Source of the DNA: a bacterium
GTDB lineage: Bacteria; Zixibacteria; MSB-5A5; GN15; FEB-12
Length of the DNA: 64,000 nucleotides
Direction: 5' to 3'
NCBI GenBank assembly: GCA_043811375.1
Contig: JBDRNJ010000031.1
Span: forward strand, 1-64,000
The notes under the pieces are model-generated. The model searched no databases, was not told the DNA's origin, and was given only the letters and a program-made list of their open reading frames with translations. Positions within the stretch are counted from its first letter, which is position 1; every line of letters starts with the position of its first letter. Position numbers and translations under genes: made by a program. Of this stretch, positions 10,649 through 34,104 are shown piece by piece.

Positions 10649-10955
10649 CCGCCCGAGTTAAAAGATGAACTTTGAACCGCCACAATCATGAGTTGCTGGA
10701 TTCGTGATCCCGGTTGATGTCTATTTCGGTCGATTAGTACGGATACAGGAAAGAAGAGAGCGAATCAAAGAACGAACGATGAAACAGAGGAAACGCAATC
10801 ACCCAAAAGCCATTACTGCCTGACAAACTGTATCTTGGATTGCAATACACCCTGTCCGGATTGTCTGATGACGTACATTCCCGGAAGTTGTAAGAGTAGA
10901 AAAAAGAAAAGCTGGCCATAGTGGACTATTTTAGAACTGCAGCGTGAGATCAGAA

Positions 10956-11009
10956 CGGGGTCTACGAGACGATTTCCGCAACTGGATTATGGAGAAACCT
11001 GCCGCGTAA
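10956..11009 (+). repeat. Junction A: att-like site encoding tail RGLRDDFRNWIMEKPAA*
   Basis: Near-identical to 22292-22345 (CTACGAGACGATTTCCGCAACTGG shared); left flank GCAGCGTGAGATCAGAA resembles the left flank of junction B. Confidence 0.75.
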
Positions 11010-11172
11010 GATTATTCTTGAGGATCACTTAGCCAAATTCCTCCGTTTATGCCTCACATGGAGACGGATCGTCGAAGAAGATGTAGCATACCACAAATGA
11101 TGCATTAGCGATGTTGGTACTGCCCTTGCAGTTAGCTTAGCCGCAAATATAAAAGGCAACGTGAACGGACGA

Positions 11173-12225
11173 TCACGCCAACCCGCGGCTTTCGCGGCGC
11201 ATCTTTTCCCAGGTTGGAAAATCTTTGGGCGGATGGACGATTTCATTCTCCGGTTTCAATCTCAATTCAATCGCTTCCTCCGGGCATCCGGTTACGCACA
11301 ATCCGCATCCGATACATTTTTCACGTACGACTACCGAAACATCATCCATCGTTTCAATCGCATTCACCTGGCATCTATCATGACAGGTCTGGCAATCGCT
11401 GCATTTATTGGAGTCGACAACAGCATAATAGTTGGCGTAGGCAACCGATCTATCTATGCCCCATTCGGTGACGCCCCGCAAAACGGCGCAACAGCATCCG
11501 CAACAATTGCAAATATACCCGATGCCGTCGGTGATGTTACTCACGCAGTGCACCAGTCCGACCTCTTCTGCCTCATCAAGAAGCGCCAATGCTTCTTCCT
11601 GCGATATCATATCAAATCCGGGCGTTCCGCTCCGTATATTAAATGCCAGACAATTTCTGACCGGAAAATCACATTTTTGTCCCAAATGCACTTTTTGAAC
11701 CCGACAAATGCAATCATGGTTGGCAAACGACTTCGCTCTCATAAGAATTTTCTTAACGTCATCATATGGGAGTACCCAATCTCCCGTGGCTGCGCCCCGA
11801 ACCGGTATTACACGATGAAGAGCCGGATCATATTTCATAATCCCCGCCGCTCCGCCGTCAGCAAGGTAATCATCCACTAATTGAGCCAGCTCTCTGTCCA
11901 TGCTATGTAGTTGTGCCTCATAAAACCCTACAACGAATGGAGCCAATCGGAATTTTATTTCGTTGGAGCTTTTATCGAACCACAACAACCCTCTCTGGGC
12001 CATTTCTTTTAATGCGGCCGCCACCTCGTCGACCGGAAGTCCGGCTCTATGCGCGATAGCTTCGGTCGGTTCCATTGTTCCAGTTAAATACCCCACCAGC
12101 TTAGCTTCTTCCTCCGAAAAGATCTTTTGCAACAATGTAATCTCAACATTGGAGGGAGTCCGCGGAAATCCGTTGGGTAATCTATCCAAAGCCTGCGCCA
12201 GTTTTTCATAAACTCCAGTATTCAT
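11173..12225 (-). CDS. 4Fe-4S dicluster binding protein with N-terminal winged-helix-like region
   Basis: CICR, CNCCGCCC, CSDCQTC...C and CIGCGLC...CP motifs. Confidence 0.85.
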   Translation of the reverse strand: MNTGVYEKLAQALDRLPNGFPRTPSNVEITLLQKIFSEEEAKLVGYLTGTMEPTEAIAHRAGLPVDEVAAALKEMAQRGLLWFDKSSNEIKFRLAPFVVGFYEAQLHSMDRELAQLVDDYLADGGAAGIMKYDPALHRVIPVRGAATGDWVLPYDDVKKILMRAKSFANHDCICRVQKVHLGQKCDFPVRNCLAFNIRSGTPGFDMISQEEALALLDEAEEVGLVHCVSNITDGIGYICNCCGCCCAVLRGVTEWGIDRSVAYANYYAVVDSNKCSDCQTCHDRCQVNAIETMDDVSVVVREKCIGCGLCVTGCPEEAIELRLKPENEIVHPPKDFPTWEKMRRESRGLA

Positions 12226-12411
12226 CTTTTTCCTATCCTCTTGTATTGGTCTACACTTATTCGTCCTTACCGGATTTTGCAGTTAATGATTGATGTCATA
12301 AAATAAGTGGAGTAGACCGGTTGAATCAACAGTTAATGTGATTAACGGGGGTTCTTTGCGTTAAGATACTTCCATGTGGCATAACTCATTGTGGGGCAGC
12401 GTGATATAAGA

Positions 12412-12516
12412 AAGCGGGGTGGGCCTCACTCTCCCCAAACTTCCGTGGAATTTAGGTTTTCGGTGAAAAGTAGCTATTCAACAGCAAATGGAAGGCGTTG
12501 GAAAACAATTACTTAA
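12412..12516 (+). repeat. Junction B: att-like site encoding tail KRGGPHSPQTSVEFRFSVKSSYSTANGRRWKTIT*
   Basis: Gap-free diverged direct repeat of 14399-14503. Confidence 0.75.
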
Positions 12517-12677: not shown

Positions 12678-12683
12678 CTGATC

Positions 12684-13043
12684 ATGGTAAACAAAAAAGC
12701 AAAGCCCCTCACTCCGGCGGTGCTTCATATCCTCCTCGCACTCTCAACAAGAGAGCGGCATGGCTATGGAATCATGAAGCAGGTGGAAGCCGATTCGCAG
12801 GGAAAAGTGAACATGGGACCTGGTACGCTCTATGGTTCGCTGGGCCGCATGATTGATGCGGGGTTGATTCGCGAGAGCGACAAAAAAGTAGATCCCGATA
12901 TGGACGATGAACGGCGAGTCTATTACAAAATCACCGGCCTCGGCCAAAAAGCGCTAGCGGCGGAATTGGAGCGGTATCGTGGAGTCGTGGCGGTCGCCAG
13001 ACAAAAACGGCTCTCGCCGAGTACTTTAGCGTATGGCATATGA
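12684..13043 (+). CDS. PadR family transcriptional regulator
   Basis: ILLAL..RHGYGIMK..GPGTLYGSL..RRVYYKIT..G. Confidence 0.92.
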   Translation: MVNKKAKPLTPAVLHILLALSTRERHGYGIMKQVEADSQGKVNMGPGTLYGSLGRMIDAGLIRESDKKVDPDMDDERRVYYKITGLGQKALAAELERYRGVVAVARQKRLSPSTLAYGI

Positions 13044-13800
13044 ACACTCAATACGACGATGTCGGCACTGGTATGCAAAACTGCTTCGCCTCTATTCGAA
13101 GCCGTACTATGAGCGCTTCGGCGAGGGAATGGAGCAAACCTTCAACGATCTTCTCCGAGAGCGCGCAGAAGAAGAAAGAGGATTATTCGATTGCGCTCTC
13201 TGGATGTTCATCGAGACATCCGCAGGAATTATTAGAGAGAATATAAAATTTATCATTATGCAAAACAAAAACATTATCCGCATTACGCTCGCGACAGCGT
13301 TCATATTGCTACTGCCCTTGTTGGCGATGCAGTTCACCGATGAAGTGGTCTGGGACCTGGCCGATTTCGCTGTCGCCGGCGCCCTCCTGTTCGGCGCTGG
13401 TCTTACGTATGAGCTGGTAGCGAGGAAGGCGGGCAATATCGCGTACCGAGCCGCCGTCGGTGTTGCGGTGGCGGCAGCACTCATCCTCGTCTGGGTGAAC
13501 CTTGCCGTTGGGCTCATCGGGTCTGAGGACAACCCCGCCAACCTGATATATGTCGGGGTGCTCGCCGTCGGAATCATCGGTGCCATCATCGCGCGCTTAC
13601 AGTCACATGGAATGGCACGCGCGTTGTTCGCGACGGCGCTCGCTCAGGCGTTGGTCGCTGTGATCGCGCTTATCGCCGGGATGCACCAGTATCCTGGTAG
13701 CTCCGTGTCTGAGATTTTGAACGTGAATGGGTTCTTCGTCGCGCTGTTTGTCTTATCTGCGTTGTTGTTTCAACGCGCAAGCGCCACGGACCCGACGTAG
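13033..13800 (+). CDS. PadR-associated integral membrane protein
   Basis: YAKLLRLY..YERFGEGM N-terminus, about 6 hydrophobic helices, overlaps the padR stop. Confidence 0.75.
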   Translation: MAYEHSIRRCRHWYAKLLRLYSKPYYERFGEGMEQTFNDLLRERAEEERGLFDCALWMFIETSAGIIRENIKFIIMQNKNIIRITLATAFILLLPLLAMQFTDEVVWDLADFAVAGALLFGAGLTYELVARKAGNIAYRAAVGVAVAAALILVWVNLAVGLIGSEDNPANLIYVGVLAVGIIGAIIARLQSHGMARALFATALAQALVAVIALIAGMHQYPGSSVSEILNVNGFFVALFVLSALLFQRASATDPT

Positions 13801-13876
13801 AACCGACGGCTTGAGTGGCGGTTTTAGTAAGCCAAGTGCATAAAATGCTCTTGCCTGCGCTTTAGCGCAGACCGCA

Positions 13877-14221
13877 TTATCGCTGCCAGAGGCCGTGGTG
13901 GATGCCCCCCTGGATGTAGATGGCGAACGTACCGTGGCCGGGGATCTCCAAGGGTGGGTGGGCGACCTCGCCGCCGGCCTCCACCGCCGCAGCGACGGCC
14001 GCTTCTATGTCGTCCACCAGCCAGTAGGGCCGCACCACTGGCTCCTCCGCCTCGTGCATGGGCGCTCGTACGCCAACAAGCCCGCCTCCCGGCAGCGCGG
14101 CCGTCCGTGCGTTGCCGAGCCCGGCGTCCGGCTCACCGAACTGCGCCCCGTTCGCTCTGGCGTACGCGGCGCACACCGCGTCGACCTCCTTGGTCACGAT
14201 TTCAAGGTAGTGGATCTGCAT
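13877..14221 (-). CDS. VOC/glyoxalase family protein
   Basis: YLEIVT..PYWLVDDIEAAV..GGEV..IPGHGTFA; GGAGG RBS. Confidence 0.8.
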   Translation of the reverse strand: MQIHYLEIVTKEVDAVCAAYARANGAQFGEPDAGLGNARTAALPGGGLVGVRAPMHEAEEPVVRPYWLVDDIEAAVAAAVEAGGEVAHPPLEIPGHGTFAIYIQGGIHHGLWQR

Positions 14222-14398
14222 GTTTCGTTCACCTCCAGTTAGCGCGCTACGCCATCTTATTCCATTCGGACCGACGTTGCGTCACCGCATTCGTTGGGTT
14301 TTAGACGAATCAGGTCATGATTCAACTCAAATATCAGCCTGAAGAATATACGTGGACTCTTGGGGGAAACACAGACAATTATAGACTAGCTTAGTCTA

Positions 14399-14503
14399 TG
14401 GCGGGGTGGACCTCACTCTCCCAAAACTCTCATTGAATTAGTGTTTGAAGTGAAAATGGGTTATTCGACGGCAAACGGAACGCGTTGGAAGACAATCAGA
14501 TAG
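14399..14503 (+). repeat. Junction C: att-like site encoding tail WRGGPHSPKTLIELVFEVKMGYSTANGTRWKTIR*
   Basis: Gap-free diverged direct repeat of 12412-12516 with synonymous changes. Confidence 0.75.
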
Positions 14504-14579: not shown

Positions 14580-17500
14580 TTACTGAGCTGCCGCTGATGT
14601 AGGCTGTTTGCGTCCCCATTTGATAAAAAGAGCGGGCACCACCACCAGATTCAAGAAGGTGGCGCTGATCAGACCGCCTAGAATCACGATTGCCATGGGC
14701 GCTTGGATTTCACTTCCGGGTTTATCCGCTGCAATCGCCAACGGGAGTAGAGCCAGTCCGGTGGTCAGGGCAGTCATAAGGATTGGACTCAGCCTTTCCA
14801 TCGAGCCCTGAATCACGGCCTCCATTATCGGCTTACCTTCTCTATCAATCAGGAAATTGTAATGCGACAACATCACGATGCCATTACGAACAGCAATTCC
14901 AAATAGCGTAATGAATCCCACAAGAGAAGCGATCGACATTATGCCGTCGGTAAGCAGGATGGCCAGTATTCCGCCGATCAAGGCTAACGGCAAGTTGACC
15001 ATCACGAGGATCGGATGGCGGAAATTGCCGAACAGCAGGTAGAGCAGCACCAGTATGGCCACAATGGACACAATACTGAAGAGAGTGACGGTCCGAGTGG
15101 CCTCGCGCTCACTCTCGAACTGTCCACCCATCTCCACAAAATATCCTTTGGGGAGATCAACATTATCGTCAATCAGTTGGCTGATTTCCTGAACTGCTCC
15201 GTGAAGATCGCGTTCCGCAACGTTGGCCTGAATGACAATCTTACGCTGAACGTTTTCGCGGCTGACATAATTGGGTCCCCGATCGACAGTGATATCAGCA
15301 ACCACTTCAAGTGGTATGGCCCCACCCGTCGGAACGTCAATCAAGCTCCTCTTGATCGCCTCCAGATCGCCTCGATGTTCAGGAGCGTACTGCACCTTGA
15401 GGTCGAAGCGTTGGTCGCCCTCATAGACTTGAGATGTCGTTACTCCCAAGAAGGCCACGTCAATCATTTCGTCCATGTCAGTCGGCCTGAGACCATAGAG
15501 AGCCATCTTCTCCCTGTTAGCTTGAACGCGTACCTGAGGAACGTCGGTCTGCTGATCTACGAAAATATCTACCAGTCCGTCGACCTCTTCCATTTCCTGC
15601 TTGATCTCCTCGGCGTATTGCCGCAATCCGTAAAGGTCAGGACCAAAGAGCTTCACGGCGATGGCGGCTCTCGTACCCGACAGCATGTGATCAATCCGGT
15701 GGGAGATGGGCTGACCGATTGTAATATTTGTGCCTTGGACAATAGACAACTGTGATCGTAATTCCTCGAGTAGTTGGGTCTTGGAAATGTTTGACAAGTC
15801 AATTTGCACTTCCATCTCATGAGCATGCGAACCGAGAGAGTGTTCATCAAGTTCTGTTCGACCAGTACGGCGAGCTGTAGAGATCACTGCGTCATGAGAA
15901 AGCAGGATCTTCTCCACCATTGAGCCAAGCTGATCCGATTGTTCAAGGGATGTCCCCGGAACAGTCGCCATCGAGATGTTAAAGGTACCTTCATTGAACT
16001 CAGGAAGGAAAGATCGACCAAGGAACGGCATCGTGGCCATTGCCGCGATTGTAAGCACCAGAGAAGCGCCGATGATCAATCCCCTGTGCTTTAGGAAGTA
16101 CCTGAGAAAGGGCTCGTATAGGTACTTCAGTTGCCGCACGAGCCAGCTTTCCTGGTGCTTTCCAGCTCCCACCTTCCGAAGGAGAATGGAACTGAGAACC
16201 GGAGTAACCGTTATGGCCACCAGCAACGAAGCTAGCACTGACACTACATAGGCTGCACCAAGGGGAATCAGCATCCTGCCCTCGACACCGCTTAGAAAGA
16301 ACAGTGGCACGAACACCACACTTACAATCGGTGTTGCCGTAGCCATTGGTCCGCGAATTTCCGAGGATGCCGCCTCAACGACCCGCATGAAAGGCCGTCG
16401 GTCTGACTCGAGCAATGCGGCATTTTCACGAATGCGCCGGTAGACATTCTCAACGTATATGATGCCATCATCCACCAAAATCCCAACAGCAATTGCCATC
16501 CCACCGAGCGTCATAGTGTTTACCGACAACCCCATGACTTTCAGTGTCAGGAAAGCCGTTACAAGAGAGAGCGGAATAGCCAAAACCGATATCACGGTAG
16601 TACGGAAATTCATCAAGAACGCAAAAAGCACCAGGGTAACAAGTATGGCGCCGTACTTCAGGGATTGAGTGACGTTTTCTATCGCGATCTCGATGAAATC
16701 AGACTGCTTAAATATCTCCGTATGCATCACAACATCGCTCGGAAGCGATGGTCGCAACTGCTCCAACCTGGTTAGAATCTGTTCGGTAAGGAGCAGGGTG
16801 TTGGCATCCGGCTGTTTGGCAATGATAAGCAAGGCTCCGTTTTCGTTGTTTATCGATGCCGTTCCGAGTTTGAAGGCCGAGGCTACGGTCACCTCCGCTA
16901 CGTCCTGAATCAAAACCGGGATTCGATTCTCGACCGTAATCACGGTCTTCTTGAGATCTTCGATATTCTGAATACGACCAAGGCCACGAATCAAGAACTC
17001 CTGACCGGATTCTACAAAGACTCCACCTGTGGCGTTAATGTTCGACTCTGCAACTGCCTTGAGGACATGATCAAGCGTCAAGCCACGTGCCGCCACCTTG
17101 TAGGGATCAACCTGAACCTGATACTGCTGAGTCTCTCCGCCGTAAACCAGAACCTGAGAGACTCCCGGAACAGATTGTATGCGTCTGGCGACCGCGAAAT
17201 CCGCCAATGTGCGAAGTTCCATCGGCGAAGTAGAATCGGCTGTCAATCCTACCAGCATGATCTCGCCCATTATCGATGTAATCGGCGCCATCATTGGTTG
17301 GTCGACGCCTTCTGGAAGCGCGTTTCCTACTATTTGTATCTTTTCGTTTACGATTTGACGCGCGATGTAGATGTCTACACCCCAGTCGAATTCGACCCAG
17401 ATAGTTGAGAGTCCTTGAATGGAATTAGATCGCACGCGTCTGACGCTAGACGCACCGTTGACAACCGTCTCGATGGGGAATGTAACGAGTTTCTCAACTT

Positions 17501-17678
17501 CCTCCGGAGCCATCCCATGGGCTTCCGTAAGAATCGTTACGGTTGGCGCTGTAAGGTCCGGGAATACATCGATAGGCATGTTTAGGGTGACTATCGTCCC
17601 CAGTATCAATAGGCCTGCTGCGGCAACCAGAACAATTAACCGGTTGTGTAAGCTGGCTTGCATGAGTTTGTCTAGCAT
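14580..17678 (-). CDS. CusA/CzcA family heavy-metal RND efflux permease
   Basis: 1032 aa; IDVFPDL, GILVDDGIIYVENV, RLSPILMT motifs. Confidence 0.92.
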   Translation of the reverse strand: MLDKLMQASLHNRLIVLVAAAGLLILGTIVTLNMPIDVFPDLTAPTVTILTEAHGMAPEEVEKLVTFPIETVVNGASSVRRVRSNSIQGLSTIWVEFDWGVDIYIARQIVNEKIQIVGNALPEGVDQPMMAPITSIMGEIMLVGLTADSTSPMELRTLADFAVARRIQSVPGVSQVLVYGGETQQYQVQVDPYKVAARGLTLDHVLKAVAESNINATGGVFVESGQEFLIRGLGRIQNIEDLKKTVITVENRIPVLIQDVAEVTVASAFKLGTASINNENGALLIIAKQPDANTLLLTEQILTRLEQLRPSLPSDVVMHTEIFKQSDFIEIAIENVTQSLKYGAILVTLVLFAFLMNFRTTVISVLAIPLSLVTAFLTLKVMGLSVNTMTLGGMAIAVGILVDDGIIYVENVYRRIRENAALLESDRRPFMRVVEAASSEIRGPMATATPIVSVVFVPLFFLSGVEGRMLIPLGAAYVVSVLASLLVAITVTPVLSSILLRKVGAGKHQESWLVRQLKYLYEPFLRYFLKHRGLIIGASLVLTIAAMATMPFLGRSFLPEFNEGTFNISMATVPGTSLEQSDQLGSMVEKILLSHDAVISTARRTGRTELDEHSLGSHAHEMEVQIDLSNISKTQLLEELRSQLSIVQGTNITIGQPISHRIDHMLSGTRAAIAVKLFGPDLYGLRQYAEEIKQEMEEVDGLVDIFVDQQTDVPQVRVQANREKMALYGLRPTDMDEMIDVAFLGVTTSQVYEGDQRFDLKVQYAPEHRGDLEAIKRSLIDVPTGGAIPLEVVADITVDRGPNYVSRENVQRKIVIQANVAERDLHGAVQEISQLIDDNVDLPKGYFVEMGGQFESEREATRTVTLFSIVSIVAILVLLYLLFGNFRHPILVMVNLPLALIGGILAILLTDGIMSIASLVGFITLFGIAVRNGIVMLSHYNFLIDREGKPIMEAVIQGSMERLSPILMTALTTGLALLPLAIAADKPGSEIQAPMAIVILGGLISATFLNLVVVPALFIKWGRKQPTSAAAQ

Positions 17679-17708
17679 TGCTTCACCTCTTTTTCGCCAT
17701 TTCTCGTC

Positions 17709-19238: not shown

Positions 19239-19247
19239 CGTGTAATC

Positions 19248-20480: not shown

Positions 20481-20535
20481 ACACGTTATCCTTGTTTAAG
20501 AATATTGATTGTTTTGTTTAGAAAAAGACTTAGGA

Positions 20536-24160: not shown

Positions 24161-24386
24161 TCCGAAGACATATCAAGCTGTGCAGTGGTTATCAATAGGG
24201 CGCATTTACGGCCTTGCCAACTACCACCCCCGCACAGTATATTCTGGATCACAGTCAGGGATGGAGCGTACGGTCGATTATGGCACAGGTCACAATAGAG
24301 AACCCAATTCTAAACTCGCCGTTTGGTGAACCGAGTCGTTGTGTTGTATTCGCTAAGAACGTGACGTTCTGGGGAGTCGCATAGGT

Positions 24387-27300
24387 ATGCCTAAACACCC
24401 CGTCGAGACTTACCTCAGTGAGCTTCATGAAATTCGTGCCACCGGCGGTGGCTCGGCTGAAATATCTTACTATGGTGCTTTGGAAGCACTGCTAAACGAG
24501 GTGGGAAGGAAGCTTAAGCCCAAAGTTCGTTGCGTTCATAATCTGGTAAATACCGGTGCAGGGTTCCCCGACTTTGGGTTATATACGGCAAATCAATTCC
24601 AGAAAGCCAAGAATGCCGAACCCTTACCGGGTCAGCTGCCGGAACGCGGCGTGATTGAGGTCAAACCCACCGACGATGATTCCTGGCTCACGGCAAAGGG
24701 GACACAGGTCACCAAATACTGGGGGCGTTACGGACAGGTACTGGTCACCAACTACCGCGATTTCGTCTTTATCGGTCGAGATGAAAGAGACAAACCAGTG
24801 AAGCTGGAGACATTTCGCCTGGCCGACACGGAGAACGCCTTCTGGGCAGCTACAACTCACCCGCGAAAGACGGCACAGGATAAGGGTGACAGGCTGATTG
24901 AGTTCTTGTGTCGCATCATGCAGCACGCTGCTGCGATTACTGATCCGGAGGACTTAGCCTGGTTCCTGGCGTCGTACGCGCGTGAAGCTAAGGCACGGAT
25001 TGAAGCCGTGAGCGATCTGCCTGGTCTTGCTGCTTTGCGCGGAGGGCTGGAAGAGTCACTTGGCTTGAGATTCGAGGGCGAGGAAGGTGAACACTTCTTT
25101 CGTGCAACATTGATTCAAACCCTTTTCTACGGCGTCTTTTCATCCTGGGTCCTGTGGGCACGCGATAACGGCACCAAAGAAACTGACCGGTTCAACTGGC
25201 ATGAGGCGGCATGGAATCTCCATGTTCCTATGATTGCCGGCTTATTTCAGCAGATTGCCACACCGAATAAACTTAAGCCGCTGGGGTTGGATGAGATCCT
25301 CGATTGGACCGGCATGGCTCTTAACCGTATAGTACGAGACAAGTTCTTTGAGAAGTTTGAGGAGGAGCAGGCAGTCCAGTATTTCTACGAGCCGTTCTTG
25401 AAAGCCTACGATCCTGATCTGAGAAAAAAACTCGGCGTCTGGTACACGCCACAGGAGATTGTCAAGTACCAGGTTGCACGTGTGGATACTGTGCTCCGAG
25501 AGGAATTAGACATCGAAGACGGCCTGGCTGACCCCAGCGTCTATGTGCTCGATCCCTGCTGCGGTACGGGGGCGTATTTGGTGGAGGTGCTGCGCAGCAT
25601 TCACCGGACACTGAAGGAAAAAGGTGCTGATGCTTTGACCGCCCAGCAGCTCAAAAAGGCGGCAATGGAACGTGTCTTCGGATTTGAGATTCTCCCCGCG
25701 CCTTTTGTTGTGTCACACCTTCAACTGGGTCTTATGCTCAGGACTCTCGGAGCGCCCCTTTCTGAGAATGGTAAAGAGCGCGTCGGTGTCTATCTCACAA
25801 ACGCCCTGACAGGATGGGAGCCGCCCAAAAGCCCCAAGGACCAATTGGCCTTCCCGGAACTGCAGGAGGAACTCGAAGAGTCTGGAAAAGTCAAACGTGA
25901 AGTCCCGATCTTGGTAGTCCTCGGTAACCCACCCTACAACGCCTTTGCCGGAACAAGCCCTGCAGAGGAACGGGGCTTGGTCGAGTCTTTCAAGGATGGA
26001 CTCACTAAACCGGTCAAGGATGGCGGCTGGGGGATAAAGAAGTTCAACCTCGATGACCTCTATGTCCGCTTCTTCCGCATCGCCGAGCGGCGGATTGTCA
26101 AGAGTGGCATGGGAGTAGTCAGCTATATCTCGAACTTCTCTTACCTTGGCGACCCATCATTCGTGGTCATGCGCCAACGATTCCTTGATGAATTTGACAA
26201 GCTCTGGTTCGATTCCATGAACGGTGATAGTCGGGAGACTGGCAAGAAGACTCCTGACGGGAAACCCGATCCCAGCGTCTTCTCCACAGAGCAGAGCCGC
26301 GTAGGCATTCGAGTAGGCACGGCGATCTGCACAATGGTTCGCAGGCGCAAGCGTTCAAGAATGCCCACGGTTCGCTTCCGCCACTTTTGGGGAGCGACAA
26401 AGCGAGCAGATGTCCTGAACAGCTTGAAGGTTAAGAAGTTCAATAAGGACTACGACATCTCCGGTCCTAATACAGGAAACAGGTTTTCGTTTCGACCCCA
26501 GGTTGTCGACGCTCATTATCTGTCATGGCCAAAGCTTACTGCGCTGTGTGGCGAAGCACCCAGTAACGGCTTGATGGAGAAACGAGGCGGTAGCCTCATT
26601 GATGTGGAGAGACAGGCTCTTGAAAGGCGTGTGACGGCTTACTTCGATGCGAACCTTGATTGGGAGGGGTACAGGTCACTCGGCTACGGGCTTGAGAAAC
26701 CGAAGGCAGGTATTGATGATCCCGAGAAACTGAGGAAGAAAGCAATAGCAGCAGAACCATATAAGCCACAACATTTGGTCCGGTATTCGGTACGCCCCTT
26801 CGAAATACAGTGGGCTTATTACTGCGCCGTCCCAGGCGTTTGGAATCGTGCGCGACCGAACTACAAGGAGCAATGCTGGGAGGGAAACACATTCATCATA
26901 ACGCGTCCTGCCGGAGTTGCGAGTGTTGAAGGAACTCCGCTGTTTTTCACAAGCACCATCGGTGACAACGACTCCCTGCGGGGACATGCCTACTACTTCC
27001 CGGTGCAATTTCGCCCGGCCACCAGGAAACGAAGGGCAGACAGCGCCTCTGGCAGCTTGGCTCTCGAAATCAAGCCGCAACGGGCCGTGGCCGCCAACCT
27101 CTCGAACAACGCACGCGCATACCTGAAATCCTTCGGCATCTCCAACCCGGACATGAACGCAGAGACAGCGAGCCTCATCTGGATGCACGCGCTGGCCATC
27201 GGATACTCGCCTGCCTACCTTTCCGAAAATGCCGATGGCATCCGCCAGGACTGGCCGAGAATCCCGCTTCCTGACTCGAAGAAAGCACTCCTGGCCTCTG

Positions 27301-27881
27301 CCAAGCTCGGCAACCGGGTCGCAGCCTTGCTCGATACAGAGAGGGGCTTGTCCGGCGTCACATCTGGTAGGCTTCGCGCAGAACTAAAGACAATGGGGAT
27401 CGTCTCGCGTGTTGGTGGAGGTAGCTTGACTGCGGAGGAAGGCGGCTTCGGCTTGACCGCCGGTTGGGGACACGCTGGAAAAGCTGGCGTCACGATGCCC
27501 GGCAGGGGGAAGATCGAGGAGCGGGCCTATACGGGTGAGGAGCTTGAAGCGTTTAACGCTGGGGCAAAGGGACTCGGTCTTACATTGAAGCAAGTGCTTG
27601 AGCATCTTGGGAAGAACACGCTCGATGTTTATCTGAACGACATGGCGTACTGGAAGAACATTCCAGTCAACGTGTGGGACTACCATATAGGTGGCTACCA
27701 GGTCATCAAGAAGTGGCTCAGCTACCGTGAGAAAAGTCTTCTTGGACGCTCCCTGAAAATGGAAGAAGTCGAATATGTCACCGACACGACACGTCGCATC
27801 GCAGCGATCATCTTGTTGCAGCCAACCCTTGACACCAACTATGAAGCAGTGAAATCGGATACATACGTGTGGAGCGACTGA
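24387..27881 (+). CDS. Single-polypeptide restriction-modification enzyme (type IIG / type ISP-like N6-adenine methyltransferase)
   Basis: N-terminal PD-(D/E)xK-like FPDF...IEVK; DPCCGTG motif I; GNPPY motif IV; C-terminal type ISP-like specificity region (WDYHIGGYQVIKKWLSYR); no helicase motifs seen. Confidence 0.85.
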   Translation: MPKHPVETYLSELHEIRATGGGSAEISYYGALEALLNEVGRKLKPKVRCVHNLVNTGAGFPDFGLYTANQFQKAKNAEPLPGQLPERGVIEVKPTDDDSWLTAKGTQVTKYWGRYGQVLVTNYRDFVFIGRDERDKPVKLETFRLADTENAFWAATTHPRKTAQDKGDRLIEFLCRIMQHAAAITDPEDLAWFLASYAREAKARIEAVSDLPGLAALRGGLEESLGLRFEGEEGEHFFRATLIQTLFYGVFSSWVLWARDNGTKETDRFNWHEAAWNLHVPMIAGLFQQIATPNKLKPLGLDEILDWTGMALNRIVRDKFFEKFEEEQAVQYFYEPFLKAYDPDLRKKLGVWYTPQEIVKYQVARVDTVLREELDIEDGLADPSVYVLDPCCGTGAYLVEVLRSIHRTLKEKGADALTAQQLKKAAMERVFGFEILPAPFVVSHLQLGLMLRTLGAPLSENGKERVGVYLTNALTGWEPPKSPKDQLAFPELQEELEESGKVKREVPILVVLGNPPYNAFAGTSPAEERGLVESFKDGLTKPVKDGGWGIKKFNLDDLYVRFFRIAERRIVKSGMGVVSYISNFSYLGDPSFVVMRQRFLDEFDKLWFDSMNGDSRETGKKTPDGKPDPSVFSTEQSRVGIRVGTAICTMVRRRKRSRMPTVRFRHFWGATKRADVLNSLKVKKFNKDYDISGPNTGNRFSFRPQVVDAHYLSWPKLTALCGEAPSNGLMEKRGGSLIDVERQALERRVTAYFDANLDWEGYRSLGYGLEKPKAGIDDPEKLRKKAIAAEPYKPQHLVRYSVRPFEIQWAYYCAVPGVWNRARPNYKEQCWEGNTFIITRPAGVASVEGTPLFFTSTIGDNDSLRGHAYYFPVQFRPATRKRRADSASGSLALEIKPQRAVAANLSNNARAYLKSFGISNPDMNAETASLIWMHALAIGYSPAYLSENADGIRQDWPRIPLPDSKKALLASAKLGNRVAALLDTERGLSGVTSGRLRAELKTMGIVSRVGGGSLTAEEGGFGLTAGWGHAGKAGVTMPGRGKIEERAYTGEELEAFNAGAKGLGLTLKQVLEHLGKNTLDVYLNDMAYWKNIPVNVWDYHIGGYQVIKKWLSYREKSLLGRSLKMEEVEYVTDTTRRIAAIILLQPTLDTNYEAVKSDTYVWSD

Positions 27882-28107
27882 TTGAATGATGCCAAACTCG
27901 ATACCTCCGTTCATGAGCGCGCGTACTAAGGTTCTTCTTGTTTGAGACGAGCTACCGCCTGAGGGTGGTTTCTGGAAACTCAGTGGGTCAAAACTACTGG
28001 TGAGTTTAGGATTATGACTGCTTCTCCGCTCAGAATCAGATTGAGTGCTCGATTTGTGATTGTCAACCAACTGACAACCTGCTATTCCAGAGGTAGGAGG
28101 TAAGCGT

Positions 28108-28887
28108 ATGGGACATATCCGACTCGACCGACTACCGAAGACCAGGCGTTGGAAAGAGGTTATTGAGTTACTTCACCAGGGCAGGTCCATTGACGAGTTG
28201 GCGCGGGCAACATTCTACGCCGCTCAAACGGGTTTGTCTCGAATACCCATTGATGCCGGCTTCACTCAGACCCTTACCGTCATATTTGGTTTCATTGACG
28301 CTCTCCAATCCAAAACTCCAGTTACCAGTTTGCGTCAAAAAGGCTTTGCCGTGCCGACGGATGCTTCACTATTTGACTATGTCGGTAGCTTCAAGGCGCG
28401 AGCCGAGGACGCAGCAGCGGCTGTCCACGCGCGATCCGATATCGCTGAAATCGCACGGGATAGTTTCTCGCAAGTTCTGCTGAAATACGCCGGTTCATCG
28501 TTGCAGACTCTCTTCGGCGTCGATTCAACTGATGCGAAACAAGCTTTGCGATCCAACCTCAAGGGGAAGCCACTCGGCTCGACTATGCACGAGTTCTTCG
28601 CCACCTTCACTCAAAGGTATCTCAATTACTACTTGGGTCGCGAATTGCCTAATCACGTTGGGACCGGCAAGGCGTTTTCAAATGTGGATGGGCATTCGGA
28701 GTTCAACAAGGCGTTTGACCTCCATGTCAGGCAGACAGTGCGGATAGCCGACGAGTTCACTCCGGGTTGGTTTGGCAAGGCACGATATGAGGAGAGGCTC
28801 TCGCATAAGGACGTGTCTCGCTTTGCCCATACAGCCTTCAAGAAGATTCGTAGCGAATTTCGGCGAGGTGGAGAGGCTAATGGATGA
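28108..28887 (+). CDS. Hypothetical helical protein coupled to a QueC-like gene (starts MGHIRL)
   Basis: AGGAGG RBS; 259 aa; 8-nt overlap with the next gene. Confidence 0.8.
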   Translation: MGHIRLDRLPKTRRWKEVIELLHQGRSIDELARATFYAAQTGLSRIPIDAGFTQTLTVIFGFIDALQSKTPVTSLRQKGFAVPTDASLFDYVGSFKARAEDAAAAVHARSDIAEIARDSFSQVLLKYAGSSLQTLFGVDSTDAKQALRSNLKGKPLGSTMHEFFATFTQRYLNYYLGRELPNHVGTGKAFSNVDGHSEFNKAFDLHVRQTVRIADEFTPGWFGKARYEERLSHKDVSRFAHTAFKKIRSEFRRGGEANG

Positions 28888-30712
28888 ACCGGTGGACATC
28901 TGGTGCGGTCCGGAGTTACTGCCGAGAAGTTTCAGTCGAAGGCGCACAGTCCTCCTCAACACAGTCCCCGATTTCCACAACGTCAACCTCCGGATTAAGA
29001 ATATCACAAAGAAGCTCGCCAAGAATCTGTCTCCGGTAGTCCTCGATCTCCTCGAAATCGCCAGCTACGTTTATGCGGCGGATCAATCGGTCCGTCGCGG
29101 GGGTAGGACGCTACGGGGAGACGGCAAAGACTGGCGCAGGGAGTTTGTGTATCACATTCCGGTTCGGCGTCTTGACCTGTGGCAAAGCGAAGAAACATCT
29201 GAAGCTCTTGTCAATCTACTGACCTTCCTTTCAGATGATTTCTATGAGTTCAAGTTTCGAGAGTTGACCAGGGAAGTTGATCCTCAGACATACATTGATT
29301 TTGACGAAGGCAGACCGTGGTTTGATGCCAACAAGGTCATGCTGTTTTCAGGTGGACTCGACTCCCTGGCCGGTCTATGTGAGAGCGTGAAGGACGACAA
29401 TCAGAGAATCGTTCTTGTGAGTCATCGCCCGGCACCGCAAACAGACCATTTGCAGAGAAAACTACTGGCTGATTTCACAGGGTTGACCGAAAGCCAGAAG
29501 CGTCTGTTGCATGTGCCGGTCTGGATAAACAAAGCTGAGAAACTCACCAAGGACACGCACCAGCGAACCAGATCATTCCTGTATGCTTCATTGGCAGCCT
29601 CGCTGGCTCATATGCACAATCTGTCAAAGGTGTACTTCTACGAGAACGGGATTACCAGTTCGAACCTGGCTATTGCGCCATCGGCTCTTGGAGCTCGCAC
29701 CAGCAGAACCACGCATCCGCAAGTTCTCAAGGGCTTTAGCAGACTGCTGTCAGTAATCTTCAATCAAGATTTCTCTGTCGACAATCCGTTCTTCTGGAAG
29801 ACGAAGGCGGATATCGTCAAGATCATAAGGGATTGCGGAGCGAAGGATTTGATTCGTCACACGAGCAGTTGTAGTCATGTTAGATCAGGCAACCCATTGG
29901 GCAATCACTGCGGTGTTTGTTCCCAGTGCATAGGCAGACGGTTGGCGATTCTGCACAACTCCGCGGAAGCCGATGATCCGGAAGAAATGTATCGGGTCAG
30001 GATGCCTCTGGACCCAATAACCAAGGACATTGAGCGAGCCATGTTGGAGCTAATCATCAAAGCGGCGCGGGACTTCGAGAGTGCCGATGTGGTCAGTTTC
30101 TTCGGCCGTTACGGGCAGGCGATGGCGATTGTGACTGCGCTGGACATGAAATCGGACCCGGCCGCAAACAGGCTCTTGGAGCTGCACAAGCGCCACGGTC
30201 AGCAAGTGTGCCAGGTACTCCAGGACATCGTTGAAACCCACGGAGGACTGGTGGCGCGTGGAGGTGTCCCGGCGAACTCCATGCTAAGCATGATAGCTGA
30301 GCAACCAACCAAGACGCCCGCTGTGCCAAAAGGCTGTATGCCCATTTCCTTGCCGGAGGATACTGTCTGGGAAGACATCACCGTTGAAATTGTCGGCAAC
30401 GATGCGGCCAAGATATTCATCGGCGATCAGTATCATGCAGTAACGGCATTTGACATGGGATTCAAGGATCACAAGAAGAACTTACCCAACCGCATTTGGG
30501 ATCTTCTTTTTGACTTTGCTGAAGCTGGCGGGACCCTGGCATGGAGTTCGGAAGAAAGAACGGGGCACTGGTACCATAAGGACTTCCAAAGGCTCAGAAA
30601 CACCCTCAAAGCGTTCTTCGGTCTGACTGAGGACCCTCTGGCTCCATATGACAAAAAAGTAGGCTACCAAACGCGCTTCAGTATTCTTTACGACCGCACT
30701 GCAAAAACCTGA
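28880..30712 (+). CDS. QueC (7-cyano-7-deazaguanine synthase)-like / QatC-like PP-loop enzyme with N- and C-terminal extensions
   Basis: LFSGGLDS, QRTRSFLY, SRTTHP, NPFFWKTKADIV, SCSH...HCGVCSQC; ATG 28880 after GGAGAGG. Confidence 0.82.
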   Translation: MDEPVDIWCGPELLPRSFSRRRTVLLNTVPDFHNVNLRIKNITKKLAKNLSPVVLDLLEIASYVYAADQSVRRGGRTLRGDGKDWRREFVYHIPVRRLDLWQSEETSEALVNLLTFLSDDFYEFKFRELTREVDPQTYIDFDEGRPWFDANKVMLFSGGLDSLAGLCESVKDDNQRIVLVSHRPAPQTDHLQRKLLADFTGLTESQKRLLHVPVWINKAEKLTKDTHQRTRSFLYASLAASLAHMHNLSKVYFYENGITSSNLAIAPSALGARTSRTTHPQVLKGFSRLLSVIFNQDFSVDNPFFWKTKADIVKIIRDCGAKDLIRHTSSCSHVRSGNPLGNHCGVCSQCIGRRLAILHNSAEADDPEEMYRVRMPLDPITKDIERAMLELIIKAARDFESADVVSFFGRYGQAMAIVTALDMKSDPAANRLLELHKRHGQQVCQVLQDIVETHGGLVARGGVPANSMLSMIAEQPTKTPAVPKGCMPISLPEDTVWEDITVEIVGNDAAKIFIGDQYHAVTAFDMGFKDHKKNLPNRIWDLLFDFAEAGGTLAWSSEERTGHWYHKDFQRLRNTLKAFFGLTEDPLAPYDKKVGYQTRFSILYDRTAKT

Positions 30713-31217: not shown

Positions 31218-32327
31218 GTGAAAACAGTGCAAGTGAATAGCAAAAATGAGAAGATCAAGAGGAAGTACTTCAGGTGGTTGAGGGAGGCAAACGGCCTGTC
31301 GGAGCTAACTGTCTGTGCTGTAGAGAAAGCGATCTGGCTGTACGAGGACTTCACCAATCACGGTGACTTCGCGGGATTCAACCAGAGCAAAGCTGTCAGG
31401 CTGAAGAAATGGCTGCTGAGCAGAACCTACAGAGGAAAGCCAGTCTCGATCACCACAGTATATCACTACCTGCGTCATCTTAAACGGTTTTTTGTCTGGT
31501 TGTCTGGCCAACCTGGCTACAAGTCGAGGATAAGTTTAGACAGCGTCTCGTACTTGTCGCTGGAGAAAAAGAAAGTACGAGAGGCAACCGCACCTAAGCG
31601 AGTGAAGTATCCTTCCTTGGAGTATGTCCGGAATCTTGCTGATTCTATCGATGTGAGAAACGAGATTGATCAGAGAGATCGAGCGCTGATTGCATTCCTG
31701 CTTCTGAGCGGAATGAGAGACAAGGCCGTCAGTACTCTCCCCATCGGTTGTTTTGATACCCAGACGCTGGAGATTCAGCAGGACCCGGTAGCAGGCGTTG
31801 ACACCAAGTTCGGGAAATCCTTCATAAGTGTTTTGTTCCGCTTTGATGACAAGCTTGTTGAGTATGTGATCAACTGGGTCAAGTACTTGACAGAGACGAA
31901 GCTGTTCGCCTCCACTGATCCACTGTTTCCGCGGAGCAGAGTGGAACAAGTAGAGGGTGGTTTGACTTTCATCTCGCGGCAGGTTGAGGGAGTGTACTGG
32001 AAAGGGGCTGGTAGCATCAGACAGATTCTGAAGGTTCGCTCGGCAAAAGCAGGCCTGAATTATTATCACCCTCACTCGTATCGCCATACGGCTGTGAGTC
32101 TGGCTATGAGGTACTGCCGTAACGCTGAGGAAATCAAGGCAGTAAGTCAGAACTTCGGTCATGACTACATCGGTACTACGATGGTCACCTACGGGACACT
32201 GGACGACTTCAGAGTAGAGGAGATCATTAGAGGAATGGATTTTTCAGCCGGTTGCTGCAAGGTGAACCAGAATCAGGTGATCGAGGATGTGCTGAGACAG
32301 CTTGAAAAACTGAAAAAGAACTCTTGA
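31218..32327 (+). CDS. Tyrosine recombinase/integrase
   Basis: RDRALI..SGMR, TKFGK, HPHSYRH, NFGH..MVTY catalytic pattern. Confidence 0.88.
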   Translation: MKTVQVNSKNEKIKRKYFRWLREANGLSELTVCAVEKAIWLYEDFTNHGDFAGFNQSKAVRLKKWLLSRTYRGKPVSITTVYHYLRHLKRFFVWLSGQPGYKSRISLDSVSYLSLEKKKVREATAPKRVKYPSLEYVRNLADSIDVRNEIDQRDRALIAFLLLSGMRDKAVSTLPIGCFDTQTLEIQQDPVAGVDTKFGKSFISVLFRFDDKLVEYVINWVKYLTETKLFASTDPLFPRSRVEQVEGGLTFISRQVEGVYWKGAGSIRQILKVRSAKAGLNYYHPHSYRHTAVSLAMRYCRNAEEIKAVSQNFGHDYIGTTMVTYGTLDDFRVEEIIRGMDFSAGCCKVNQNQVIEDVLRQLEKLKKNS

Positions 32328-32352
32328 CATAGGCGACATATGACGATATATT
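32324..32352 (+). promoter_or_regulatory. sigma-70 promoter for the HTH-serine recombinase operon
   Basis: TTGACA-17-TATATT. Confidence 0.55.
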
Positions 32353-32362
32353 GGGGTGTACA

Positions 32363-32557
32363 ATGGCTAAGAAGGATTTGATAACAAAGCTCGAAGAGTT
32401 TCGGTTGGAGAACAGGATCACTCAGACCGAACTGGCGGATATGATGGGAGTGGCATTCGTAACCGTCAATCGGTGGCTGAACGGTCATCAGTACCCGAAC
32501 CGGATTCAGGAGTACCACATCGAGAAGCTCCTATCTTCTAAGGGACGCAAGCGATGA
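32363..32557 (+). CDS. XRE-family helix-turn-helix protein
   Basis: ITQTELADMMGVAFVTVNRWLNG; ATGA overlap with the recombinase. Confidence 0.85.
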   Translation: MAKKDLITKLEEFRLENRITQTELADMMGVAFVTVNRWLNGHQYPNRIQEYHIEKLLSSKGRKR

Positions 32558-34104
32558 AGTGCGTGATCTATGCCAGGGTCTCGTCGAAAGAGCAGGAGCG
32601 CGAGGGCTTTTCAATTCCGTCACAACTGAAACTCGTGCGAAAATACGCCCGTGAGAACAACCTGGAAGTGGTGCAGGAGTACATCGACGTGGAAACAGCC
32701 AAGGCCACGGGGCGAACTGGATTCGGCGAAATGTTGGCATACATCAAGGCACCTATGCACGAGTGTCGCGTAATTCTGGTGGAGAAGACAGACCGCCTCT
32801 ACCGCAATATCAGGGACTGGGTCACTTTGGACGAGTATAATGTTGAGGTTCACTTCGTCAAAGAGAACTTCATTCTTTCAAAGGATTCAAAGTCGTCAGA
32901 GAAATTTCTTCACGGCATCAAGGTCCTGATGGCCAAGAACTACATCGACAACCTCTCGGAGGAAGTGAAGAAGGGAATGCGTGAGAAAGCCGAGCAGGGT
33001 GAATGGCCCAACAAAGCACCCTTGGGCTATCTGAACAACAAGGAAACCCACCTGCTTGAGGTTGATCCGGACCGTGCTCCAATAATCGCACAGCTTTTTG
33101 AATTGTACTCTACTGGACAGCATTCCATCACAACTTTACACCAAAGAGCAAAAGAGCTGGGCCTTAAGTACAGAAACTCGAACCGGTATTGCAGCCGAAG
33201 CAACATCGAGAGAGTTCTGAAGAACCCGATATATGCCGGTCGATTCGTATGGAAAGGCACCACCTTCCGGGGAATCCACGCACCGATAATATCTGAGACG
33301 CTGTTCGAAGAGGTCCGGGCGCGGTTCCGTAGGAGCGGCAAATCCAAGGCCAACACTCGGAAGTTTGCTTTCAAGGGACTGCTCACTTGTGGCTACTGTG
33401 GCTGTGCTATCACTGCCGAACTCAAGAAAGGGAAGTACGTCTACTATCGGTGCACTAACGGCAAGGGTAAGTGCAAGCAGCCGTACGTTCGCGAAGAGAA
33501 GCTTGCTGATACTCTTGCGGAAGTCGTTATTCGAGTGCGTATTAGCTCGTCCCAAGCAGGAGAGATAAGAGAGGCTCTGAGGGCCAGCTTCGAAACAGAA
33601 AAGGGATATCGGACGAAAGAAGTCGCCAGGCTGAAGCGTGAACAGGCGCGACTCCAAGGCCACCTTGATCAGACATACCTGGATAAGATTGAGGGACGAA
33701 TTGACACCGAGTTTTGGAGGAAGACGCACGATAGATGGATCAGTGAGCAGAACTTGGTATCAAGCAGGATGGAGGAATTGACGCGCGCCAACAAGAACTA
33801 CTACGAACAGGGCGTCGATTTCTTAGAACTCGCCCAAGCAGCCCCCTCGTTATACCTTAGCCAGACAATCGACGAAAAAGCCAAGCTGTTGCGTACGCTA
33901 CTTTCGAACTGCACGATGAAGGGGGCAACCCTTTGTCCCACATACAACAAACCCTTCAACTTGGTCGCTGAAGGGGGCGCAGGTGACAAAAAGCTGGGAG
34001 ACTGGGATTCGAACCCAGATTCTGCGGTCCAGAGCCGCATGCCCTGCCATTGGACTATCTCCCAGTACCTTAAGACAAATCGGCGACTGCCGCCAAATTC
34101 TTAG
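32554..34104 (+). CDS. Large serine recombinase (resolvase + recombinase + Zn-ribbon + coiled coil)
   Basis: YARVSS catalytic motif, DRLYR, APLGY, NPIYAG, HAPII, CGYCG..YYRC; last ~37 codons are the antisense of tRNA-Gln and flank. Confidence 0.93.
   Translation: MKCVIYARVSSKEQEREGFSIPSQLKLVRKYARENNLEVVQEYIDVETAKATGRTGFGEMLAYIKAPMHECRVILVEKTDRLYRNIRDWVTLDEYNVEVHFVKENFILSKDSKSSEKFLHGIKVLMAKNYIDNLSEEVKKGMREKAEQGEWPNKAPLGYLNNKETHLLEVDPDRAPIIAQLFELYSTGQHSITTLHQRAKELGLKYRNSNRYCSRSNIERVLKNPIYAGRFVWKGTTFRGIHAPIISETLFEEVRARFRRSGKSKANTRKFAFKGLLTCGYCGCAITAELKKGKYVYYRCTNGKGKCKQPYVREEKLADTLAEVVIRVRISSSQAGEIREALRASFETEKGYRTKEVARLKREQARLQGHLDQTYLDKIEGRIDTEFWRKTHDRWISEQNLVSSRMEELTRANKNYYEQGVDFLELAQAAPSLYLSQTIDEKAKLLRTLLSNCTMKGATLCPTYNKPFNLVAEGGAGDKKLGDWDSNPDSAVQSRMPCHWTISQYLKTNRRLPPNS
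33994..34064 (-). tRNA. tRNA-Gln(CTG), CCA not encoded
   Basis: TGGGAGA/TCTCCCA acceptor stem, TGCGG-CTCTGGA-CCGCA anticodon arm, CTGGG-TTCGAAT-CCCAG T arm. Confidence 0.95.

Follow-up and report, generated by a model that had tools for sequence, protein, structure and literature searches.

A probable tandem accretion array at a tRNA-Gln gene of a Zixibacteria genome, with displaced coding tails of a large serine recombinase family at its junctions

Background

What built the stretch of DNA that lies to the left of the tRNA-Gln(CUG) gene in a Zixibacteria genome (GenBank assembly GCA_043811375.1, contig JBDRNJ010000031.1), and what are the short repeats that divide it? The question concerns a window of 64,000 nucleotides (nt), by which we mean the whole analysed stretch, positions 1 to 64,000 of that contig. 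Within it, the region at ~10.9–34.0 kb carries four repeats, here called A to D, between groups of genes, and ends with a gene for a tyrosine recombinase, a gene for a large serine recombinase (LSR), and the tRNA gene itself. A first-pass annotation, made from the letters alone, had read the region as an integron-like cassette array to which the LSR had added units one after another at the tRNA 3' end. The analysis reported here points to integrative-element units that stand in tandem beside the tRNA 3' end, explained by a clade of LSRs that target such ends and whose own attachment site (attP) lies within the recombinase gene; we assign a probability of roughly 70% to this reading as a whole, array and explanation together. 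That the locus is a real feature, a tandem accretion array with displaced LSR coding tails as its junctions, is well supported by the comparisons described below. The relatives used for these comparisons belong to other genera or beyond, and the wider set consisted of 160 genomes of the same order.

The repeats encode short C-terminal tails

The five letter strings that the first-pass annotation had quoted, one for the tRNA junction and four for sites upstream of it, were all found where it had placed them. Alignment with blastn sorted the four sites into the two families that it had proposed from their right halves: A (10956) and D (22292), each ~54 nt long, align over 41 nt at 90% identity (E = 2e-10), and B (12414) and C (14401), each ~100 nt long, align over 96 nt at 78% identity (E = 3e-20). 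The flanks to the left of A and B, said to be alike over 17 nt, are in fact homologous with gaps over ~45 nt, and their local alignment score was reached by 3 of 2000 shuffles. The further proposal that the tRNA junction aligns with all four sites, through a 12-nt match, fell away; blastn returned no similarity, and the score of the junction against D, which shares GC and a run of G with it, was reached by 548 of 2000 shuffles. The repeats are not spread through the genome. Besides those on the window contig, strong copies of the A/D repeat in this assembly are confined to a second cluster on contig C64 (five strong and two weak), with the copies on each contig lying on one strand, and C64 also holds this genome's third copy of the B/C repeat.

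The A/D repeat encodes a 17-residue C-terminal tail, RGLRD[DEA]FRNWVIEN.AA followed by a stop codon. The B/C repeat codes in the same phase for a 33-residue tail, and its 33-codon open reading frame (ORF) and stop position are kept in 8 of 10 copies. A search of the order for the 24-nt core of A/D, allowing at most 2 mismatches, identified it in 59 of the 160 genomes, and a control search with the reversed pattern identified it in 0. The stop falls at codon 14–20 in 43 of 50 distinct A/D copies, with 29 of these 43 ending in -AA and 10 in -A, and an alignment of 35 copies displays a sharp left edge, a pattern of change at third codon positions, and a stop at a fixed distance. Conservation begins abruptly ~12 nt before the motif; the left flank has an information content of 0.09 bits, the 9 nt ahead of the search pattern 1.1 bits, and the 18 nt behind it 0.75 bits. 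The 24-nt core had itself been chosen by the search pattern. Hardly any A/D copy is preceded by a long upstream ORF, suggesting that the copies are orphan 3' ends of a gene. As judged from these sequence comparisons and from those with the recombinase below, the repeats can be taken as displaced coding tails of the LSR family, in the LSR reading frame.

If the repeats were instead a chance motif, a structured RNA, or a regulatory element, and not recombination sites, their intergenic position and their conservation would be accounted for as well, but the prospect is close to negligible. Rfam gave no match to the repeats even at E ≤ 1, and A to D fold no better than shuffled sequences on either strand. 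The repeats are also conserved in the manner of a coding sequence, with an unmoved stop, and their copies share one orientation and gather at tRNA and LSR loci. Early ideas for what the repeats might be (a tRNA fragment, a Tn3-type inverted repeat, the end of a group II intron, a XerCD/dif site) proved a misfit once the coding frame had been seen.

The tails belong to a tRNA-targeting recombinase family

The window LSR matched the Pfam domains for a resolvase catalytic region (PF00239, E = 3e-24), a recombinase (PF07508, E = 6e-17), and a zinc ribbon (PF13408, E = 1e-12). It is conserved in its homologues up to ..AEGGAGDKK, and from codon 480 (33991) onward it is encoded by the antisense of the tRNA-Gln gene and the DNA beyond; the window LSR thus appears to carry a swapped tail. 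Homologues at 66–86% identity likewise read into tRNA antisense. Among the 120 best homologues, 62 read into the antisense of a tRNA T-loop (..DSNP..) and 39 stop shortly after the crossover, and the other 19 consist of 4 with A/D-type tails, 1 with a B/C-type tail, 6 otherwise classified, and 8 without the anchor motif. The LSR ORF and tail D agree in codon phase: in each, the C of their common GC (33994 in the ORF, 22292 in the tail) is the first base of a codon.

Full-length LSRs that end in such tails were also identified. One on an Acidobacteriota contig (L111) ends ..WLAALDDFRNYLIREAA, and those of G011 and G118 (also P0101) run straight into the 33-residue tail. The G011 and G118 genes (G011:C24, L162; G118:C4, L161) lie with the tail intact in long chromosomal contigs with no adjacent tRNA, and their junctions are unrecombined attP-like junctions within the chromosome. 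Orphan tails still joined in frame to a remnant of the LSR 3' end (..PTY.KPFDILA.G...) make up 4–5 of 57, compared with 0.2–0.3% in controls; L041, L048, L050, and G015 provide examples. A clean single island is present in a cyanobacterial metagenome-assembled genome (L130), where the LSR reads ..LDSN.., an orphan tail is found 7.4 kb upstream of it, and both junctions share a 9-nt core. Since the tails are true C-termini of LSR homologues, attP appears to lie inside the LSR gene. No account of an attP within a serine recombinase's own gene at a tRNA was found in the open-access literature, subscription journals being outside the scope of that search. The self-splitting recombinase gene is unusual; tandem island growth of this kind is already known.

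The start of the A/D tail (GCGGGGTCTACGAGAC) is identical to the 3' end of tRNA-Asp at 16 of 18 positions, suggesting that the P' arm of attP mimics that target. Several A/D tails in the G079, G015, and G018 arrays are followed, ~10–36 nt downstream, by a sequence resembling the 3' end of tRNA-Arg (CCCCGGCAGGAC..TCGAAC), as if a second target-like site rides along.

Relatives of the window LSR are numerous, with 6742 at E ≤ 1e-30 among 8000 candidates scored. The genomic context of 80 LSR loci from many phyla was examined, and in 60 of them a convergent tRNA 3' end lies at the end of the LSR gene; these tRNAs are for Asn (25), Gln (17), Asp (5), Ser (5), Glu (3), Ile (2), and Ala, His, and Pro (1 each). 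A tyrosine integrase is adjacent in 6 of the 80. An upstream copy of the tRNA 3' 17-mer, with at most 3 mismatches allowed, was present in 0 of the 45 testable loci, with 2 control matches, a result that fits serine rather than tyrosine chemistry. In the window itself, the common core of the putative attL and attR is short: D and the tRNA junction have GC and the G-run in common, with no long direct repeat of the target. Scanning the 80 cross-phylum loci with profiles of both repeat families gave two convincing partial A/D matches (L111 and L130), along with two weak ones, a minus-strand A/D match in L111 and a B/C match.

These counts bear on a second possible builder, the tyrosine integrase encoded at 31218–32327, which would have produced a classical tRNA island with a direct repeat of the tRNA 3' end on either side. 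The integrase does stand beside the LSR in the window and in G029, G079, G038, and G011 (the G029 integrase and LSR are 57% and 67% identical to those of the window), and the A/D tail does open with its stretch like the tRNA-Asp 3' end (16 of 18 nt). We nonetheless consider this builder very unlikely. The integrase is adjacent in 6 of 80 LSR loci whereas 60 of 80 abut a tRNA, and it is not near this genome's two other LSR copies, both of which are close to a contig end. Moreover, the repeat is in the LSR frame and equals the LSR's true C-terminus, the tRNA-Gln junction and D share no core that is long enough for a tyrosine recombinase, and none of the 45 testable loci has the upstream 17-mer. 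A displaced second copy of the tRNA-Gln 3' end, which a classical tyrosine-integrase island should have, is absent from the contig. The first-pass annotation had taken the sites to be recombination junctions tied to the LSR and not to its tyrosine neighbour, and this view stands. Its statement that only the unit next to the tRNA has recombinases was also confirmed, as tblastn of both proteins against the whole contig matched 31218–34104 only.

Two paralogous LSRs were noted in G000. The first, on contig C32 (174–1523), lacks the first ~35 residues and ends at a 110-nt tRNA-Asp-like fragment (1502), of which a second copy lies 16 kb further on (17852); the real tRNA-Asp genes are on C27 and C28. 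The other, a third LSR paralogue on contig C6 (115704–117212, 52% identity), lies beside tRNA-Arg(UCU) in the same convergent arrangement and has its stop just after the PTY motif.

Co-oriented arrays recur in the order

Four strong and two degenerate junctions lie to the left of tRNA-Gln in the window, all on the plus strand. A to D are all intergenic, and the units span 1.4–11.7 kb, each with one to at least six genes, which lie on both strands. The first-pass division of this DNA into units by the sites was borne out, and the same architecture was found at tRNA-Asp and tRNA-Gln genes in relatives. Wherever a contig has at least two A/D copies within 50 kb, which is the case for 23 contigs, the copies are co-oriented, and 7 of 9 arrays point to a tRNA-Asp or tRNA-Gln gene; the remaining 2 are cut by contig ends. 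A full LSR is present in three of the seven. These are the window array (2 A/D and 2 B/C copies), which leads to the tyrosine integrase, the LSR, and tRNA-Gln, and the arrays of G079 (7 A/D over 46 kb) and G038 (3 A/D), which lead to a tyrosine integrase, an LSR, and tRNA-Asp. The G018 array (2 A/D) leads to tRNA-Gln with an LSR remnant, and those of G015 (6 A/D), G134 (4 A/D and 3 B/C), and G072 (2 A/D and 2 B/C) lead to tRNA-Asp with no LSR. The two arrays that run into a contig end are on contig C30 of G029 (3 A/D) and on C64 of the present genome (5 A/D, 2 weak A/D, and 1 B/C). The tails, in short, are in-frame coding pieces that belong to this family of LSRs, and the arrays keep a single orientation and are anchored by tRNA genes.

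The genes to the right of the tRNA are shared with G010, which has a tRNA-Gln followed by the same methyltransferase, FMN-reductase, and ABC-F genes and no LSR, indicating that the tRNA is a host gene; the left flank in G010 is unrelated to that of the window. In G008, G026, and G018, only 3' fragments of an LSR were found beside tRNA-Gln.

A proposed mechanism and its alternatives

In the mechanism that we propose, the builder would be an LSR clade that targets tRNA 3' ends and whose attP crossover falls within the 3' coding end of the LSR gene itself. As long as the element is free (attP), the LSR ORF would end in the 17-residue or the 33-residue tail. Integration at the GC beside the tRNA 3' end would split the gene, after which the LSR would read into the antisense of the tRNA (attR) and its native tail, the P' half-site, would be left orphaned at the far end of the element (attL). 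D would be the attL (P' arm) of the resident 11.7-kb defence island, and A, B, and C, together with the two degenerate remnants to the left of A and B, would be attL scars of earlier elements that are now recombinase-free. Site A would be an attL-type scar whose unit has no recombinase. We infer that this LSR made these junctions, that the crossover lies at the GC, and that accretion followed the order and mechanism described; that the window LSR uses an Asp-like P' arm is likewise deduced, with help from the second tRNA-Gln array bearing such tails (G018).

Several observations weigh against this mechanism. The tRNA-Gln gene and tail D have nothing beyond GC and a G-run in common. The left flank contains no LSR remnant in 52 of 57 orphan tails, and left flanks are AT-rich over the last ~6 nt only; if elements simply inserted beside the tRNA and then decayed, or inserted into an old attL, many more recombinase remnants than 4–5 of 57 would be expected. 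Textbook LSR chemistry favours neither attP × attR nor attP × attL recombination. At the level of whole genomes the association of tails with the clade is weak, as an LSR of the clade is present in 23 of the 59 tail-bearing genomes and in 25 of the 101 without tails, the genomes being related and not independent. Finally, tail-flanked homologues of the window cargo (the 4Fe-4S protein and the EamA transporter) were not found in relatives; homologues of the 4Fe-4S protein (61–70% identity) in three relatives have no tails within ~4–8 kb, the extent of the loci examined. A G[AT]CAA motif was not enriched in the left flanks (5 of 57, versus 4% in controls).

The left end of the array raises an alternative of its own. 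Host synteny with relatives reaches ~10620 and further conserved sequence reaches ~10885, and the outer boundary, which the first-pass annotation had placed at 10955, is probably near 10911, where a degenerate tail (the Q tail) begins. If the whole of 10911–33993 had arrived as a single composite element, its true attL would be the tail at 10911, and A to D would be relics from the arrays of earlier hosts. The 9-mer AAAAGCTGG with which the Q tail opens occurs also at the tRNA junction (33988–33996), the short tail is in frame and ends in -AA and a stop, the host sequence extends nearly to it, and the A/D tails mimic tRNA-Asp and not tRNA-Gln. Nevertheless, we regard a single composite arrival as quite improbable: the 9-mer match is weak, with 118 of 2000 shuffles reaching its score, no copy of the Q tail was found in relatives or at the other tRNA-Gln LSR loci searched, and D is an intact canonical tail of exactly the family type. 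Under the tandem-array reading, the sequence at 10911 may be the outermost scar. Matches to GCTGGCCAT in relatives were considered as further Q tails, but all of them lie inside unrelated sequence and were judged to be chance.

The units without an LSR suggest yet another possibility, which the first-pass annotation had also raised, namely that they are non-autonomous cassettes that need only a tail (the P' half-site) and an AT-rich end and are moved in trans by the resident LSR, in the manner of Ccr recombinases and pseudo-SCC (SCC, staphylococcal cassette chromosome) elements. A 1.6-kb unit bounded by junction cores is common to the G015 and G134 arrays, which come from two families; it is 80% identical at the nt level, with the similarity starting and stopping at the cores, and the flanking genes are 66–69% identical. 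In L056 and L057, from two genomes of one genus, the left flanks are 89.5% identical and divergence sets in right after the tail. Many arrays (such as G015, G134, and G072) have no LSR at all, and the left flanks prefer AT over no more than 6 nt, so that the left half-site could be minimal. Experimental mobilization of recombinase-less SCC-like cassettes by Ccr is described in PMC11470126. We still find a cassette platform of this kind unlikely. Only one clear shared unit was identified, and transfer of a whole composite element explains it equally well; the units of the window have no tail-flanked counterparts elsewhere; and a search for a conserved right-end motif found none. To our knowledge, known LSRs require two half-sites in attP, which also counts against such a platform. 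The resistance-nodulation-division (RND) system encoded on C64 was compared with that of unit 3 as a candidate for the same cassette and was rejected, being only 29% identical.

A combined reading would make the split LSR gene a built-in switch and the scars reusable docks; we offer it tentatively and think it, on balance, doubtful. As a hypothesis for the switch, the -AA tail of the free LSR, which resembles an ssrA-type degradation signal, would be replaced by tRNA-antisense residues on integration, and this swap would alter the stability or directionality of the enzyme without a separate factor. For the docks, orphan tails that mimic a tRNA 3' end may serve as secondary landing sites at which LSR-free gene blocks would be captured and exchanged. 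If both parts were true, a tRNA-anchored cassette platform would exist in many bacterial phyla.

Relation to known systems

The integron-like label of the first-pass annotation was not upheld. Ordered, co-oriented units split by recombination sites with a recombinase at one end do recall an integron, but the units of the window are multi-gene with orientations of their own and the recombinase is a serine and not a tyrosine enzyme. No IntI was identified, as the tyrosine recombinase, which is weakly Xer-like, scored at best 48.9 bits versus a cut-off of 335, the XerA model ('tyrosine recombinase/integron integrase') gave 48.5 bits versus a cut-off of 220, and no dedicated integron-integrase model matched. 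Hairpins resembling attC are absent from A to D, which gave z values of -0.72 to +1.18 versus shuffles when folded on both strands. None of the integron traits tested for was found, and the array is not an integron analogue in the strict sense.

Closer parallels are provided by LSR-built tandem arrays. In the ssrA islands of Dehalococcoides, as described by McMurdie et al. (2011, PMC3146451), DsiB, a CcrB-like LSR, lies at the edge next to the target, islands stand in tandem beside one stable-RNA gene with all junction repeats in one orientation, and 15 module-less units are read as cis-mobilisable remnants in arrays built by accretion. The window array shares with these the tandem units, the co-oriented junctions, the LSR at the target edge, and the module-less units. 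It differs in its target, the extreme 3' terminus of tRNA-Gln or tRNA-Asp as opposed to the T-loop of the transfer-messenger RNA in Dehalococcoides, and in its junction repeat, 54–100 nt of recombinase coding sequence as opposed to a 20-bp copy of the target (PMC3146451). A small partner like the Dehalococcoides DsiA was not seen in the window.

The best NCBIfam similarity of the window LSR is to XisF, CcrA, and CcrB, far below the cut-offs, with the CcrA, CcrB, and CcrC models giving 45–91 bits versus 700–900. According to PMC11470126, Ccr recombinases mobilise tandem, defence-rich cassettes beside rlmH, including recombinase-less ones, which are enriched in defence genes. Both systems consist of LSR-driven tandem units beside one conserved gene with one recombinase set serving the array, but the SCC target is the 3' end of a protein gene in staphylococci and its att sites are short shared cores; mobilisation in trans is experimental for SCC (PMC11470126) and hypothetical for the window array. 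No account of a split recombinase gene, as in the window, was found for SCC. The array is not SCC proper, since the Ccr models fail and the target is a tRNA gene and not rlmH. The first-pass suggestion of a new kind of gene-capture platform must likewise be withdrawn, LSR tandem arrays with recombinase-free units being known from PMC3146451 and PMC11470126.

The window array shares two traits with the tandem accretion type represented by ssrA genomic islands, SCC, and cis-mobilisable elements (CIMEs), namely units in tandem with co-oriented junctions by one target, and recombinase-free units alongside an LSR unit. ICESt1 and ICESt3 of Streptococcus thermophilus, which are integrative and conjugative elements (ICEs), reportedly take part in tandem ICE/CIME accretion, with att-flanked remnants that have no recombination genes lying beside an active element; they are said to differ from the window array in their tyrosine integrase, their fda target, and their link to conjugation. 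Integration into tRNA genes is usually by tyrosine integrases, according to the Islander report (PMC4383910). In the integration-dependent immunity of mycobacteriophages, attP lies in the repressor gene, and integration at a tRNA removes an ssrA-like -LAA tag (PMC9262239). There, as in the window, integration at a tRNA cuts a gene at attP and changes a C-terminus; the gene cut in the phages is that of a repressor and the integrase is a tyrosine enzyme (PMC9262239), whereas here the recombinase's own gene is split.

An orphan in-frame recombinase tail would be a simple signature that marks island boundaries to the base across a very large, cross-phylum LSR clade, in islands on which ordinary direct-repeat methods fail. 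On this evidence, the defence and efflux genes of this lineage sit in a zone of accretion like that of SCC. Should the swap of tails regulate the enzyme, recombinase activity would be coupled to integration state in a new way, and the system would offer natural attP/attB pairs aimed at conserved tRNA genes, of interest to genome engineering.

Features of the window

The features of the array are collected in Table 1. The functional labels of the first-pass annotation held in part. Its 'metal efflux' unit does encode an efflux system, consisting of AcrB, membrane-fusion, and outer-membrane proteins, for which the substrate is unproven; its 'VOC' (vicinal oxygen chelate) label has no Pfam support at any of the three candidate ORFs (13877–14304).

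Table 1. Positions of the junctions, cargo genes, recombinase genes, and target gene of the putative array, with assignments based on sequence comparison.
Feature	Position	Strand	Description
Q tail, tentative outermost scar	10911..10947	+	Degenerate tail LAIVDYFRTAA, stop; opens with AAAAGCTGG
Site A	10956..11009	+	Orphan 17-residue LSR tail RGLRDDFRNWIMEKPAA, stop; nhmmer E = 7e-14
Unit 1 cargo	11173..12225	-	350-aa 4Fe-4S dicluster protein
Remnant left of B	12372..12404	+	Degenerate tail, ends ..CGAA, stop; homologous to flank left of A
Site B	12414..12516	+	Orphan 33-residue LSR tail, second type: RGGPHSPQT..YSTANGRRWKTIT, stop
Unit 2 cargo	12684..14304	+	PadR regulator (12684-13043); 255-aa protein (13033-13800), no family match; small unassigned ORFs
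Site C	14401..14503	+	Orphan 33-residue LSR tail, second type: RGGPHSPKT..YSTANGTRWKTIR, stop
Unit 3 cargo (14580..22182), RND efflux	14580..17678	-	AcrB-family protein
Unit 3 cargo, RND efflux	17709..19238	-	Membrane-fusion protein
Unit 3 cargo, RND efflux	19248..20480	-	Outer-membrane factor
Unit 3 cargo			143-aa ORF
Unit 3 cargo	21082..22182	+	EamA transporter
Site D	22291..22345	+	Orphan 17-residue LSR tail RGLRDDFRNWVIENVAA, stop; nhmmer E = 4e-16
Unit 4 cargo (22352..30712), defence-type	22352..23908	-	WD40/APAF-1-helical protein
Unit 4 cargo, defence-type	24387..27881		Type IIG/ISP restriction-methylase
Unit 4 cargo			259-aa ORF
Unit 4 cargo	28772..30712		QatC-like protein
Tyrosine recombinase	31218..32327	+	Weakly Xer-like
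LSR	32554..34104	+	Large serine recombinase, 516 aa
tRNA-Gln(CUG)	33993..34064	-	Sole tRNA gene of the window; putative host target (B' arm), with attR at its 3' end

At both A and B, another degenerate tail ends 8–9 nt to the left of the site (..TAA and stop for A; ..GAA and stop for B). Such stacking of tails is frequent, with a tail and its stop followed after 6–10 nt by the start of the next tail at a constant spacing of 54–60 nt, as at 10911–10960, at 12372–12420, and in L039; the common pairing in which a B/C tail comes after an A/D tail belongs here too. An inverted partial copy of the start of the B/C tail (22 nt, 82%) is located at 22219–22240, just to the left of D, and matches 14410–14431, so that unit 3 is bracketed by the two.

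Between the Nitro_FeMo-Co gene and the array lies the conserved segment 10685–10885, with a stop-to-stop ORF on the plus strand (10718–10921). Matches to this segment (~74%) were found in G029, in G012, on contig C57 of the present genome, and in at least 6 places in G026, two of them at contig ends. The ORF has a Cys-rich frame (..HYCLTNCILDCNTPCPDCLMTYIPGSC..), and its stop overlaps the putative outermost scar. Within unit 4, the 259-aa ORF and the gene for the QatC-like protein (28108–30712) are also adjacent on contig C47 of G026 (L020), at 48% identity each and beside an LSR remnant at tRNA-Gln, and together they may form a defence module conserved in these islands.

Beyond the tRNA, palindromic repeats (CAACCCCAAAC..GTTTGGGGTTG) occur at 43430–49101, where inverted arms at 44018–44047 and 49072–49101, 97% complementary, bracket ~5 kb and possibly belong to another mobile element. 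At 57624–63163, repeats of 80–300 nt, 88–98% identical, occur at spacings of 1685 nt and 2302 nt.

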